Assembly: GCA_044222065.1 (NCBI GenBank)
Contig: JBGAOA010000085.1
Location: 1-14,594, forward strand
Direction: 5' to 3'
DNA length: 14,594 bases
From: Candidatus Eiseniibacteriota bacterium
Lineage (GTDB): Bacteria; Eisenbacteria; RBG-16-71-46
The notes under the pieces: generated by a model
What the model was told of the DNA's origin: nothing
What the model saw: the letters and a program-made list of their open reading frames with translations, nothing else
The model's database searches: none
Made by a program: the position numbers and the translations under genes
In this document: piece by piece, positions 831 to 14,594 of the stretch
How the letters are laid out: each line of letters begins with the position of its first letter
Numbering within the stretch: position 1 is the stretch's first letter

Positions 831-2819
831 CTACCCCACGCTCGCCGCCCCGACGCTCACGGGATTCACGCTCTCGAGCGTCGCCGCGACGAGCAACCGC
901 AGCCGGTGGAAGTGCGCGAGCGGCAGCACGTGGCCGTCGTGGCCGTCGAGCGCGCGCGCTTCGATCACGCGGCCGTCGGCGCCGAGCCGGACGCCGATCG
1001 CTTCGTCGCGGAACCGGTAGCCGTCGCCGTCGCGGTCGAGCACGTACTCGCGCCCTTCGATCCGCGCCCACACGCTGCGGCCGCGCGCGAGCACGACGAG
1101 CCCGTCGGCGGGCGCATCGGCCTCGTAGGCGGCGAGCGAGCCGTGGACGCGCGGCTTCACGCGGAACGGGTCGCCGACCTCGGGACAGAACGTGACACAG
1201 TTCCCGCACGCGTTGCAGGCGTCGGCGAACACGAGCCACTGCGCCTCGCGCGTCGTCGTGAAGCGCGCGGCGCGCGAGGTGACGCGCCCGCCCTCGATCG
1301 CGACCTCGGGCGCCTCGACGTCCGCCGGCGCGAGGTCCACCGCGAAGAACGCGCCGTTCGGGCAGCACAGCACGCAGTTGTTGCACGAAGCGCAGTCGAG
1401 CGCCTTCAGCGTCCCGGCGCGGACCGGCGCCACGCGCTGGTGCTCGCCCGCGTGGTAGCGCGGGTCGCTCGCGACGCGCGCGGCGTAGGCCGACAGGTTC
1501 GCGAGCGCCGCTTCGCGCACGATCGCGCGCCGCGACACGGCCGCGCGCCGCGCGTGCGCAACGGTCGCGACGTCCACGCGGTCGGCGTGTCCCGAGCGCG
1601 CGAGCACGTACGAGTCCACGTCGCTCACGCCGCGCCGCTCGAGTTCGGCGTCGAGCGCCTTCAAGTAGCGGGGGAGCCGCCGGTAGCCCGTGGGCCGCAG
1701 CAGGTCCGTGCACGACGTCACGGGCGCGAAGCCGCACGCGACGACGTCGGCAAAGTTCTCGGCGTCCACGCCGCCGCTGAACGACAGCGGCAGCGCGCCC
1801 TGCGTCGCCTCGGCAAGGCGGGCGGCGAGCGTGATCGCGAGCGGATGGAGCGGCGAGCCCGACAGGTACGTGTGTTCGCCCGCGAGCCGCCCGCGCGTGT
1901 TGCGCACGACGAGCGTGTTCGTGAGCTTCGCGCCGAACGCGCGCCCGCGCGCGAGCGCCGCCTGGCTCAGGCGGCCGAGCATGTCGAGCGTCTCGTTCCA
2001 GCCGAGCGTCTCTTCGAACGGCGCGCGGTCGAGTTCCAGGTCGCGCCACCCGAGCCGCCCGCGCAGCAGCTCGTCCACGGCGCCGAATCCGAGCAGCGTG
2101 GGGTTGAGCTTCACGACCACGTTGAGCTGATGGCGCTCCATGAGGTGCAGGATCATGGACTCGATCTCGCGCGGCGGGCAGCCGTGGAAGGTCGACAGCG
2201 TCACCGCGCGCACGAGCCGCCGCGGCGCGTCCACGTCGCACACCGGCCGCAACGCGGCCGGCAGTTCGTCGCGCAGCCCCGCGAGCACCGTGCTCGCGTC
2301 CGCCATCGTCGCGAGGAATCGCTGCACCCCTTCGCTCTGGAGTCCCGCGAGGTCGTAGCCCACCGACGCCTCGAAGTGCGTGTCGGCGGCGTCCGCGACG
2401 CCGCGCGCCGCGAGCGCGTGGATCAGCAGCCAGCCAGCGGCGTACTCGCGCGCCGACTCCTCGAGCGACAGCTCCTGCGACCACTCCACGTTGTGACACG
2501 CCTCGCCGGCGTCGATGCACGGGCGCGGGATCTCGAGCCGGTCGCGGACCTGCACGGTCTTGAGCTCGAGCGTGCGCGCCCCCGCGAGCCACGCGGCGAC
2601 GAGGTTCGGGGCGAGCTGCGTGTGCGGTCCCGCGGCCGGGCCGGCCGGCGTCGCCGCGCGCGACTCGCACTGCGGCAGCGCGACGGACAGGTCGCGTCCC
2701 GGCTGCGCGCGCCAGAACGAGCGCATCGGGAGCCCGTACACCTGCCGCTCGCGCTCGAGCCCCTGCAGCGCCTCGGTCACGAGCGACGCGAACGGCCGCG
2801 GAACGAAGCGCGCGTTCAC
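831..2819 (-). CDS. ygfK: YgfK-like oxidoreductase, short form (662 aa): dihydroorotate/dihydropyrimidine-dehydrogenase-like barrel plus two C-terminal 4Fe-4S motifs
   Basis: GTG at 2819 overlaps the upstream stop (GTGA) and gives MNARFVPRPF. YgfK N-terminal signatures: TPAGPAAGPHTQLAPNLVAAWLAGARTLELKTVQ, IPRPCIDA, NVEWSQEL, SVGYDLAG, TLSTFHGCPPREIE, KLNPTLLG, KLTNTL, SFSGG, TDLLRPTGY. C-terminal motifs CASCNNCVLCCP and CNACGNCVTFCP. Confidence 0.85.
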   Translation of the reverse strand: MNARFVPRPFASLVTEALQGLERERQVYGLPMRSFWRAQPGRDLSVALPQCESRAATPAGPAAGPHTQLAPNLVAAWLAGARTLELKTVQVRDRLEIPRPCIDAGEACHNVEWSQELSLEESAREYAAGWLLIHALAARGVADAADTHFEASVGYDLAGLQSEGVQRFLATMADASTVLAGLRDELPAALRPVCDVDAPRRLVRAVTLSTFHGCPPREIESMILHLMERHQLNVVVKLNPTLLGFGAVDELLRGRLGWRDLELDRAPFEETLGWNETLDMLGRLSQAALARGRAFGAKLTNTLVVRNTRGRLAGEHTYLSGSPLHPLAITLAARLAEATQGALPLSFSGGVDAENFADVVACGFAPVTSCTDLLRPTGYRRLPRYLKALDAELERRGVSDVDSYVLARSGHADRVDVATVAHARRAAVSRRAIVREAALANLSAYAARVASDPRYHAGEHQRVAPVRAGTLKALDCASCNNCVLCCPNGAFFAVDLAPADVEAPEVAIEGGRVTSRAARFTTTREAQWLVFADACNACGNCVTFCPEVGDPFRVKPRVHGSLAAYEADAPADGLVVLARGRSVWARIEGREYVLDRDGDGYRFRDEAIGVRLGADGRVIEARALDGHDGHVLPLAHFHRLRLLVAATLESVNPVSVGAASVG

Positions 2820-3910
2820 ATCGTCACCATGCGCTTCCACAGGCGCGTCGCCTCGATGCGCGCCTGCGCGCGGATCTCGTCCTCGTCCGCCGTCACGAGC
2901 CGGCCGCCGTCGACGACCACGCGGCCGTCCACGACGACGTGCGCGACGGGCGCTCCGGGCGCCGTGACGTCGCGCGTCACGCGGTCGCGCGCGATCGCGT
3001 CGGCGCCGAAGTGGGCGGCCGCGAACGCGAGGTTGTGCTCGAGCCGCAGGTCGAGCGCGTCCGGGTCCGTGTCGGGATCGTGGCGGGCCGCGAGCCGGTG
3101 GAGCGCCGCGAGTTCCATGCGCAGGTCGGCGGGGAAGCCGTCCGTGCCGACCAGCGCGCGCCGCGCGGCGTGGAGGGAGCGCGCGTAGCCGACGTGGTTG
3201 CCTTCGTTCGAGCGCGGATTCTGCGCGAACCACAGGCCGCGGGCCTCGGCCGCTTCGACCTGGCGCTCGTCGAGGTGCACGCCGTGAGCGAGCAGCGAGC
3301 CCTCGGGCAGCGCTCCGAGTTCGAGCAGGCGCTCGAGCGGCCCCGCGTAGCCGCGCCGCCGCGCGTCCTCGACGTCGGCGCCGTCCTCGGCGCAGTGGAC
3401 GTGCGCGGCGAGGCCGAGCGCCGAGCACAGCTCGCCGGCCTCGCGCAGCGTCTCGTCCGAAACCGTGAACGACGCGTGCAGCCCGACGAGCGCGCGCGCG
3501 AGCGGGCGTTCGTTCGTGCGCGCGAAGCGCGCGCACTCGGCGAGCCCGCGCTTCGCCTCCTGTCGTCCGCGGTTGCGCTCGGTCGCGCCGTAGCACACGA
3601 CGACGCGGACGCCGATTTCGGCGCACGCGTCGGCGATCACGTCGAGCGATCCGTCCACGAAGTTCGGCGACTCGTGGTGGTCCACGAGCGTCGTCGTGCC
3701 GTGACGCAGCGCCTCGGCCGCGTAGTAGCGGACGCTCGCGCGCAGCGACGACGGGTCGAGCGCGCGGTCGAGCCGCCACCACACGCGCTCGAGGATCTCG
3801 ACGAAGTTCGCGGGCGGCGCGTTCGGAGCCGGCATCCCGAGCGGCGTGAGTCCGCTGTAGAGGTGCGTGTGGGCGTTCACGTCGCCCGGATGCACCGCCG
3901 GCGCCGTCAC
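2816..3910 (-). CDS. ssnA: SsnA-like metal-dependent amidohydrolase (364 aa)
   Basis: GTG at 3910 overlaps the xdh stop (GTGA). Amidohydrolase motifs: PGDVNAHTHLYS (HxH), FVEILERVWWRLDRALD, GTTTLVDHHESP, GLHASFTVSD, HVHCAE, LAHGVH, NPRSNEGNHVG, GTDG. SsnA-like C-terminus ARIEATRLWKRM. Confidence 0.85.
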   Translation of the reverse strand: MTAPAVHPGDVNAHTHLYSGLTPLGMPAPNAPPANFVEILERVWWRLDRALDPSSLRASVRYYAAEALRHGTTTLVDHHESPNFVDGSLDVIADACAEIGVRVVVCYGATERNRGRQEAKRGLAECARFARTNERPLARALVGLHASFTVSDETLREAGELCSALGLAAHVHCAEDGADVEDARRRGYAGPLERLLELGALPEGSLLAHGVHLDERQVEAAEARGLWFAQNPRSNEGNHVGYARSLHAARRALVGTDGFPADLRMELAALHRLAARHDPDTDPDALDLRLEHNLAFAAAHFGADAIARDRVTRDVTAPGAPVAHVVVDGRVVVDGGRLVTADEDEIRAQARIEATRLWKRMVTM

Positions 3911-13701: not shown

Positions 13702-14594
13702 GCGGCCCGTCGCGGCTCGCGTGCGCGGCGTGCGGTCACGCGCCGGACGCGCGCGAGCCGCACCCGTTCGCGTGCCCGCACGCCGGGCGAGACGCGCGCG
13801 ACCACCGGCTCGTGCGCACGCTCGACCCGGCGCGCGTGCGGTTCGAGGTCGGCGGCGCGGCGAATCCGTTCGTGCGCCATCGCGAGCTGCTGCACGCCTA
13901 CTGGCGGGCGCGCGACGGCGGCGTGAGCGACGGCGACTGGGTCGCTGCGGTCGAGGCGCTCGACCGCGCGGTCGCGGGCGTCGAGGGGCGCGGCTTCGCC
14001 GCGACGCCGCTCGAGCGCGCCGACACGGTCGCCGCGGCGCTCGGCCTGGCCCACGCCGGCGTGTGGCTCAAGGACGACACGGGCAACGTGTCGGGCTCGC
14101 ACAAGGCCCGCCACCTGATGGGGCTCGCGATCCACCTCGACGTGGCCGAGCGGCTCGGGTTCGCGCGGCGCGCCGACGTGGACGCGCGCGGGCTCGCGAT
14201 CGCCTCGTGCGGGAACGCCGCGCTCGCCGCCGCCGTCGTCGCGCGCGCGGCCGGGCGTCCGCTCACGGCGTTCGTGCCGCCGGACGCGAACCCGCGCGTG
14301 CTCGAACGGCTCGCGGCGCTCGGCACGGCCGTGCGCGTGTGCGAACGCGTCGCGGGAGAGGTCGGCGATCCGTGCGTGCTGCGCTTCCGCGAATCGGTCG
14401 GCGCAGGCGCGCTGCCGTTCTGCGTGCAAGGCACCGAGAACGGCCTCACGATCGAGGGCGGCTCGACGATCGCGTGGGAGATCGCGGCCGCGGCGCGCGC
14501 ACGCGGACTCGCGCTCGACCGGCTGTTCGTGCAGATCGGCGGTGGCGCGCTCGCGAGCGCGTGCGTCGCGGGCATCGCCGAGGCCGCATCTCTC
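13698..14594 (+). CDS. Fold-type II PLP-dependent enzyme, threonine-synthase-like; N-terminal part, runs off the right edge
   Basis: Not in the ORF track. GTG at 13698 overlaps the previous stop (GTGA). Hand translation: [95 protein letters not shown]. The frame is open for 299 codons to the window end. Confidence 0.88.

Follow-up and report, generated by a model that had tools for sequence, protein, structure and literature searches.

We analyzed a candidate purine-degradation gene cluster in a 14,594-nucleotide stretch of DNA (referred to below as the window) that represents the entire contig JBGAOA010000085.1 (C4) of a Candidatus Eiseniibacteriota genome assembly (GCA_044222065.1; 4.2 Mb; 94% complete; G+C content, 72%). 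Nine genes are present (Table 1): six on the minus strand, in the order arcC-ygeW-ygeY-xdh-ssnA-ygfK, and, back to back with them on the plus strand, three genes for pyridoxal 5'-phosphate (PLP) enzymes, here designated PLP1, PLP2, and PLP3. This is the layout that a first-pass annotation, made from the sequence letters, had described, and both the coordinates and the family scans agree with it. Four of the five minus-strand junctions are 4-base overlaps, and 8 bases separate ygeY from xdh. The G+C content varies from 0.69 to 0.77 across the window, compared with 0.72 genome-wide. No sigma-70 or terminator consensus was detected in the 233-base intergenic region, and an Rfam scan of the window returned zero matches. 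The missing end of PLP3 could not be located elsewhere in the assembly; in relatives, the full-length protein has approximately 445 to 485 amino acids (aa). Recurrence of the nine-gene set had been proposed as a check, and the identical order was found in a relative (G001, locus L102); thus, the arrangement is due neither to chance nor to misassembly. Among the PLP2 relatives whose lineage is named, the closest come from Candidatus Eisenbacteria.

Table 1. Features of the cluster, with the family evidence for each
Feature	Position	Strand	Remarks
arcC (ArcC/YqeA carbamate kinase, 340 aa)	9283..10305	-	First gene of the operon; NF009007, 316 bits > cutoff 266
ygeW (YgeW-like knotted carbamoyltransferase, 380 aa)	8144..9286	-	Best families NF005538 and TIGR03316, both below cutoff
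ygeY (long-form M20 amidohydrolase, 518 aa)	6591..8147	-	Best family NF009555, below cutoff
xdh (XdhAC/DOPDH-type molybdenum hydroxylase, 891 aa)	3907..6582	-	TIGR03311, 903 bits > cutoff 830; Pfam domains
ssnA (short-form ring-opening amidohydrolase, 364 aa)	2816..3910	-	Best families NF005540 and TIGR03314, below cutoff
ygfK (short form, 662 aa)	831..2819	-	TIGR03315 positions 6-419 and 878-982 only
Divergent intergenic region (233 bases)	10306..10538	.	Both promoters presumed here
PLP1 (SufS-like class-V PLP enzyme, 516 aa)	10539..12089	+	PF00266
PLP2 (long CysK-like fold-type-II PLP enzyme, 499 aa)	12202..13701	+	PF00291
PLP3 (ThrC-like fold-type-II PLP enzyme, N-terminal Cys motif)	13698..>14594 (gene cut by contig end)	+	PF00291

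An oxygen-independent uric acid pathway of gut bacteria was solved in 2025 (PMC12507026; 10.1101/2025.04.24.650524). As described for Escherichia coli and Clostridium sporogenes, this reductive urate/2,8-dioxopurine pathway involves XdhD-YgfM or XdhAC, YgfK, SsnA, HyuA, YgeW, YqeA, YgeY, and YgeX (PMC12507026; 10.1101/2025.04.24.650524). The window likewise holds a Mo hydroxylase, a YgfK-family reductase, SsnA, YgeW, a carbamate kinase, and YgeY in one operon. It differs in that its YgfK lacks the flavin adenine dinucleotide (FAD)/NADPH module, its SsnA lacks the N-terminal strands, and its YgeY is approximately 115 aa longer; in that neither hyuA nor a transporter gene lies in the cluster, and neither DpaL/YgeX nor YqeB/YqeC was found in the genome; and in that CysK-like and ThrC-like PLP genes adjoin the operon. 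The levels of identity to the E. coli counterparts are 41% (YqeA), 48% (YgeW), 31% (YgeY), 34% (SsnA), and 28% (XdhD), while YgfK is 40% identical in its N-terminal part and 25% identical in its C-terminal part. In predicted function, the cluster is a real, conserved variant of the recently solved pathway.

The molybdenum enzyme (Xdh) contains two [2Fe-2S] domains and the molybdenum cofactor (Moco) domains but no FAD domain, and no FAD subunit is encoded in the cluster. The best solved match to its residues 400 to 860 is nicotinate dehydrogenase (3HRD), which is the group described by Liu et al. as nearest DOPDH (10.1101/2025.04.24.650524). In alignments, SsnA lacks approximately 50 N-terminal residues, i.e., most of the N-terminal beta-sandwich, and its metal ligands (H14, H16, H170, H172, H209, and D257) are invariant; short forms of 352 to 378 aa recur in relatives. 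YgeY is enlarged by several insertions and retains the metal-site residues H113, D172, E209/E210, and H489, with Asp at position 241 compared with Glu in E. coli; relatives and Rhodoplanes likewise have the long form (504 to 527 aa). The catalytic roles assigned to the residues named here and below are putative, as read from alignments. Profile gaps and alignments thus bear out the truncated YgfK and SsnA and the enlarged YgeY noted in the first-pass annotation, and the unusual sizes of these three proteins are conserved lineage traits with the predicted catalytic residues intact.

YgfK is shortened internally. Positions 420 to 877 of TIGR03315 are unmatched and there is no PF07992 match; the central FAD/NADPH (pyridine nucleotide-disulfide) module is thus missing. 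A predicted flavin mononucleotide (FMN) barrel and a C-terminal 2x[4Fe-4S] ferredoxin domain are retained, and the eight Cys residues of the latter (C476 to C486 and C535 to C545) are invariant in the alignment. Matched against PreA, the short YgfK profile aligned from the end of the barrel through the ferredoxin domain (probability, 96%), in a PreA-like layout; against solved structures it gave a single weak ferredoxin match. All of the best 120 homologues are 545 to 699 aa long, in a search that admitted proteins of 364 to 1,159 aa, and 16 of the 18 YgfK loci read in relatives encode the short form, the other 2 being full length. A full-length YgfK was also looked for in the 94%-complete assembly and was not detected. 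The reductase position varies among relatives, being occupied by short YgfK, full-length YgfK, fused or split PreT-PreA, or an F420-type enzyme. Known variants of the pathway are UacX, UacY, and a putative F420 reductase, and UacX of Clostridioides difficile is described as a FAD-less reductase (PMC12507026). The window protein resembles UacX, clostridial PydAc, and PreA in combining a FMN barrel with a ferredoxin-type Fe-S domain and in lacking a nicotinamide-binding module; unlike them, it descends from YgfK (40% identity in the barrel region), PF01180 is not matched, and its likeness to PreA is at the profile level only.

Since neither redox enzyme of the cluster (Xdh or short YgfK) has a nicotinamide site, an outside electron donor would be needed. 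Ferredoxin is our simplest guess, with UacX as a possible precedent (PMC12507026). A PreT-like gene (at least 47% identity) is present in 8 of the 10 short-YgfK genomes checked; the remaining 2 (G001 and G027) have weaker matches only, and on present evidence PreT is therefore not an obligate partner of short YgfK. The window genome carries PreT-like and PreA genes on contig C81. A complex prediction for short YgfK (residues 1 to 555) and this PreT scored 0.00 and was used neither for nor against the pairing. A candidate electron link is a 611-aa GltD-like FAD/NAD(P)H protein that spans the segment missing from short YgfK and is encoded elsewhere in the genome (C12:12336-16837; L142), within a pyruvate:ferredoxin oxidoreductase-like operon. 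At L106, L127, L147-L149, L154, L155, and L160, a fused PreT-PreA gene (approximately 830 to 860 aa) adjoins ssnA, in several relatives without YgfK and also in G005, which has the short YgfK too; such a fusion is a further option for the reductase.

PLP2 carries K114, STGN (142-145), NQF (217-219), IQGIG, and S363. Its structural model has a pLDDT of 95, and its best fold matches are O-acetylserine sulfhydrylases; the profile probability is 98% for E. coli CysK and 9.5% for YgeX. PLP2 thus resembles CysK and the beta-substituted alanine synthases in its predicted fold (TM-score of approximately 0.8 by target length) and in its PLP- and carboxylate-binding motifs, while differing from CysK in being approximately 170 aa longer, in showing at most 30% identity, and in its location in a catabolic purine cluster. 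It scored 67 bits against TIGR01139 (cysteine synthase A), below the cutoff of 351. For PLP3, the model of the G002 orthologue (pLDDT, 94) is closest to threonine synthases and deaminases. Both this predicted fold and the best sequence matches liken PLP3 to threonine synthase (ThrC), although it has ILDDETYD in place of the AIKIGNP of the best-matching threonine synthase, and a full-length orthologue scored 96 against NF006050 (threonine synthase; cutoff, 303). A separate ThrC-like gene lies on contig C92 of the same genome.

Both proteins share with YgeX/DpaL (TIGR01747 and NF006058) the fold type (PF00291) and, as we read the cluster, a pathway position ending in pyruvate. Neither matches TIGR01747, and their motifs are STGNY and SCGNA rather than the TDGNH that includes Asp120. 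PLP3, at 96% profile probability, is closer to YgeX than PLP2, which has almost no profile match; it is nevertheless only 22% identical to YgeX, over a part of its length. It has K136, and Cys171 occupies the YgeX Asp120 position, as does Cys in 31 of 31 alignment rows of the window's type of PLP3. The published neighborhood map scores YgeX by PF00291 (PMC12507026), so PLP2 and PLP3 would be counted as YgeX and a swap would be hidden.

We examined the distribution of these genes in 151 genomes from the same phylum. At an E value of ≤1e-45, 61 of them have ssnA; three matches weaker than 1e-57 (G006, G015, and G036, all without PLP2) were dropped, leaving 58. PLP2 is present in 59 of the 151 genomes, in 58 of the 58 retained ssnA genomes, and in 28 of the 28 genomes with a YgfK-like match. 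DpaL/YgeX was found neither in the window genome nor in any of the 151, in agreement with the first-pass annotation, which had recognized no DpaL. YqeB is present in 11 of the 58 ssnA genomes. These phylum-wide counts for DpaL and YqeB agree with the absences in the window assembly, which, being incomplete, is not proof by itself.

The best 80 of 581 PLP2 loci comprise 42 with a purine-type context, 36 with a CoA-transferase context, none with both, and 2 with neither. PLP3 accompanies PLP2 in 26 of the 27 that hold ssnA. The exception (L099) has PLP2 and a true DpaL (NF006058 over cutoff) but no PLP3, while its sister loci (L054, L060, and L101) encode PLP3 but lack DpaL. In other phyla, PLP2 and PLP3 share the orientation of xdh and ssnA, and related clusters also include genes for adenine deaminase and for guanine deaminase-like and XdhABC-like proteins. 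A second sample consisted of 201 genomes from the phylum of G158 (L077, Chloroflexia), 47 of them with ssnA: long PLP2 is present in 27, a short CysK-like form in 18 (at least 64% identity), both in none, and neither in 2. DpaL exceeded its cutoff in 2 of the 201. Of the 105 genomes with ssnA, 47 + 33 were covered by the scans for YgeY and PLP3; housekeeping threonine synthases are matched by the PLP3 profile as well. A metagenome scan with E. coli SsnA as the query detected PLP1, PLP2, or PLP3 in 0 of 80 loci; it reached close relatives only (78 to 100% identity), and its 10-kb flank mostly missed even ygeX (6 of 80).

The short CysK-family protein (345 to 355 aa) occurs in place of long PLP2 in purine clusters of the second phylum (L242-L257 and L281) and has TPG-x-ES and ECP-x-L motifs in common with it. 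This form passes TIGR01139 (362 > 351), and cysteine synthase A is the annotation that it would receive. PLP2 is also the lead gene of another conserved cassette, found mainly in Proteobacteria (L042, L052, L057, L063, L081-L091, L097, L098, and others, making up the 36 of 80 loci mentioned above), in which it is followed by CoA-transferase alpha and beta subunits and a F420-dependent LLM enzyme. Genes for F420 synthesis, a Mo enzyme of the CoxL type, an ArgE-like M20 hydrolase, and 5-oxoprolinase often accompany these, and three loci have L-serine dehydratase. The cassette seems to be a catabolic route, so far undescribed, for a different heterocycle. In a quick PLP2 tree, the sequences from this context group with a support of 91, below the starred level.

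PLP1 behaves differently from its neighbors. It has a PLP lysine (K284) and a cysteine (C426) aligned to the SufS persulfide cysteine, and it scored 131 against a SufS cutoff of 475. By these comparisons it is a SufS relative, not a SufS, and it is probably an accessory cysteine desulfurase. A close form occurs in 18 of the 151 genomes, all from one family, and 16 of these have ssnA; thus, PLP1 accompanies ssnA in 16 of 58 genomes and is found at 1 of the best 80 PLP2 loci. In G009 and G141, it lies in unrelated settings. Judged by this distribution, PLP1 is an optional, family-restricted member. The first-pass annotation had treated the three PLP genes as one arm; conservation with the purine genes holds for PLP2 (58 of 58) and PLP3 (26 of 27) and fails for PLP1, whose rarity means that the three do not form one conserved unit. 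A methyltransferase gene lies beside PLP1 in L103, L110, L122, L286, L288, and L294 but not in the window. As a replacement for YqeB, i.e., as the sulfur or selenium donor of Moco, PLP1 is unsupported: 7 of the 18 close-PLP1 genomes have YqeB, and PLP1 is found outside the cluster as well.

In our judgment, the locus probably codes for a modified form of the reductive 2,8-dioxopurine (yanthine) route of urate breakdown, in which a YgfK without its FAD/NADPH module would work with a separate electron carrier and PLP2 and PLP3 would replace DpaL/YgeX. The analysis shows the gene content, the domain loss, the conservation of catalytic residues, the predicted folds, and the co-occurrence of the genes, whereas all of the reactions are inferred. 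The template is the published enzymatic route (10.1101/2025.05.19.654654; 10.1101/2025.04.24.650524). Xdh would convert urate to 2,8-dioxopurine, short YgfK would reduce the ring with electrons from the separate carrier, and SsnA would open the reduced ring to ureidomethyl-hydantoin. A borrowed hydantoinase would yield diureidopropionate, from which YgeW and ArcC would release a carbamoyl group as carbamoyl phosphate and make ATP, and YgeY would lead to diaminopropionate. Finally, PLP2 and PLP3 would convert diaminopropionate or albizziin to pyruvate and ammonia. We infer that both are beta-eliminases of 3-substituted alanines, with diaminopropionate as the substrate of PLP3 and albizziin or the opposite enantiomer as that of PLP2. 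That DpaL stands in for PLP3 in L099 while PLP2 stays points to PLP3 as the YgeX analogue. Two further roles for PLP2 fared poorly. As an albizziin lyase bypassing an absent YgeY, it is weakened by the presence of YgeY over cutoff elsewhere in 17 of the 18 short-form genomes. Replacement of HyuA was rejected, since PLP2 and HyuA co-occur in several clusters and a hydantoin would offer no free amine.

Several observations weigh against this interpretation. Only TIGR03311 (the Mo enzyme) and a carbamate kinase subfamily model exceeded their cutoffs among the pathway models in the family scan; ArcC (TIGR00746), YgeW, YgeY, SsnA, and YgfK scored below the equivalog cutoffs. No HyuA hydantoinase is encoded in the cluster or anywhere on the contig. 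A D-hydantoinase/dihydropyrimidinase over the TIGR02033 cutoff lies on contig C97 near a carbon-nitrogen hydrolase; it is probably a pyrimidine-pathway enzyme and, given that neighbor, may serve pyrimidines only. The first-pass annotation had set its variant against a canonical dpaL, hyuA, and full-length ygfK elsewhere in the genome, and the C97 hydantoinase is the one such counterpart that was found. PLP2 and DpaL coexist in L099, L078, G292, and G346 and are thus not strictly exclusive. In eight genomes, YgeY accompanies the short CysK-like form and neither PLP3 nor DpaL is matched, which suggests that a CysK-like enzyme can finish the route alone and pulls against the division of labor to which L099 points. 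In its CoA-transferase context, PLP2 occurs without PLP3 and with no ssnA over the threshold, so the presence of PLP2 alone does not mean urate. Finally, the sampled genomes are related and mostly incomplete and may overlap the 80 loci, and the counts are not independent trials.

PLP2 could instead be a sulfhydrylase that replaces the 3-amino or 3-ureido group with sulfide and so makes cysteine from the purine-derived C3 skeleton, with PLP3, DpaL, or housekeeping enzymes removing or using the cysteine and PLP1 drawing its sulfur. The CysK fold of PLP2, its TSGN-type loop and NQF and IQGIG motifs, the score of its short form as a cysteine synthase A, its persistence next to a true DpaL (which makes it not simply redundant), and the catalytic cysteine of the SufS-like PLP1 all fit this explanation. 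We nevertheless regard it as distinctly unlikely: PLP1 is absent from 42 of the 58 ssnA genomes, no sulfide-supply gene recurs among the neighbors, and elimination would be a simpler finish for a catabolic, ATP-yielding operon. It is quite improbable, in our estimate, that PLP2 or PLP3 is a racemase that takes the D-intermediate left by a D-hydantoinase and supplies its L form to its partner, an L-specific lyase. The invariant Cys of PLP3 lies at the YgeX Asp120 position, which we take to be the Ser84 site of serine racemase. Ser84 is described as the re-face base of that enzyme (PMC6424897). The pathway intermediates have been assigned the R configuration (10.1101/2025.04.24.650524), and YgeX is reported to accept both isomers (PMC12507026), a job that could be split across two enzymes. 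The Asp120 position is, however, occupied by Thr in the ThrC-like partners of other clusters and in D-serine dehydratase, and by Ala in the genome's own ThrC-like protein; such a variable residue is not diagnostic of a racemase. Moreover, DpaL, which needs no racemase, replaces PLP3 rather than PLP2 in L099.

That the locus acts by analogous chemistry on another N-heterocycle (e.g., a modified purine, a pyrimidine, or a pteridine) appears very improbable. The enzymes are just 28 to 48% identical to their E. coli counterparts, PLP2 is also part of the proteobacterial cassette, which combines a CoA-transferase pair with F420 genes and another Mo enzyme, and the genome has separate aerobic allantoin-route genes. 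Against these points stand the TIGR03311 score of the Mo enzyme, the adenine deaminase, guanine deaminase-like, and XdhABC-like genes of related clusters, the PreT/PreA and dihydropyrimidinase genes already available for pyrimidines in this genome, and the failure to find a uricase (PF01014) in the genome. The first-pass annotation had left the choice between a remodeled reductive urate cluster and a different heterocycle; the former is conserved, and nothing here points to the latter. We give next to no credence to the idea that the PLP arm is an unrelated neighbor or that the shortened genes are decaying. The arm does lie on the opposite strand, and PLP1 does occur in unrelated settings, but the constancy of PLP2 in the ssnA genomes, the codirectional arrangement of PLP2 and PLP3 with xdh and ssnA in other phyla, and the large size of the short YgfK family with its invariant Fe-S cysteines largely refute this idea for PLP2, PLP3, and YgfK, leaving it standing for PLP1 only.

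SelD is encoded in the genome, and YqeB and YqeC were not found in the 94%-complete assembly, so that the selenium-cofactor trait (SelD, YqeB, and YqeC) is incomplete; in a gut strain library, all cluster-bearing strains are described as having YqeBC and SelD (10.1101/2025.04.24.650524). The SelD gene (C79:1555-2481; L020) has one in-frame TGA and probably encodes a selenocysteine form. At C58:17134-18665 (L143), genes for a MobA/MocA-like nucleotidyltransferase and an XdhC chaperone lie beside another XdhABC-like set and likely supply the cofactor for the Mo enzyme of the window. A bolder possibility, which we consider unlikely and offer only tentatively, is a selenium-independent, ferredoxin-driven urate pathway whose CysK-like enzyme would put sulfide in place of the 3-amino or 3-ureido group of diaminopropionate or albizziin, giving cysteine, or would cleave urea from albizziin. 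Were this so, the purine-to-cysteine link or the urea cleavage would be a new reaction, present in the purine clusters of multiple phyla and in the proteobacterial F420/CoA-transferase cassette.

A literature search, with most subscription papers outside its reach, returned no description of the PLP2/PLP3 pair or of the short YgfK, and nothing relevant on DpaL Asp120/Asp189 or on purines in Eisenbacteria; supplements may show such clusters. Screens built on gut-strain genes would miss or mislabel the version in the window. If the variant urate route is correct, it would assign reactions to two widespread PLP families that lack them, and it would offer a reductase that has no nicotinamide module and perhaps a selenium-independent Mo enzyme; engineered urate-degrading probiotics are stated to be limited by their cofactor demand (10.1101/2025.05.19.654654). 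Which ureido group is removed first and what the stereochemistry is are matters of dispute (PMC12990295), and the activity of PLP2 on albizziin compared with products derived from 3-amino-2-ureidopropionate would bear on this dispute.

Some related clusters have two carbamoyltransferases and no YgeY nearby (L114, L127, L128, L037, L038, L044, and L077), and scans of the whole genomes of G018, G027, G081, and G158, among others, detected no YgeY; in such clusters, both ureido groups may yield ATP. On contig C97 of the window genome (C97:1713-16984; L018 and L017), an aerobic-type allantoin cluster comprises genes for allantoinase, OHCU decarboxylase, and ureidoglycine aminohydrolase and XdhABC-like genes, and cytochrome bd-like oxidase genes adjoin it; these genes bear on the label "anaerobic" that the first-pass annotation had given the window cluster. 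Short, near-identical pieces of both arms, including one over the intergenic region, were present at low depth in three RNA-library runs, in which DNA carry-over is possible. At the other end of the window (positions 2 to 664, minus strand), a gene cut by the contig start encodes a Kelch-repeat protein with a hydrophobic N terminus that is apparently unrelated to the cluster.

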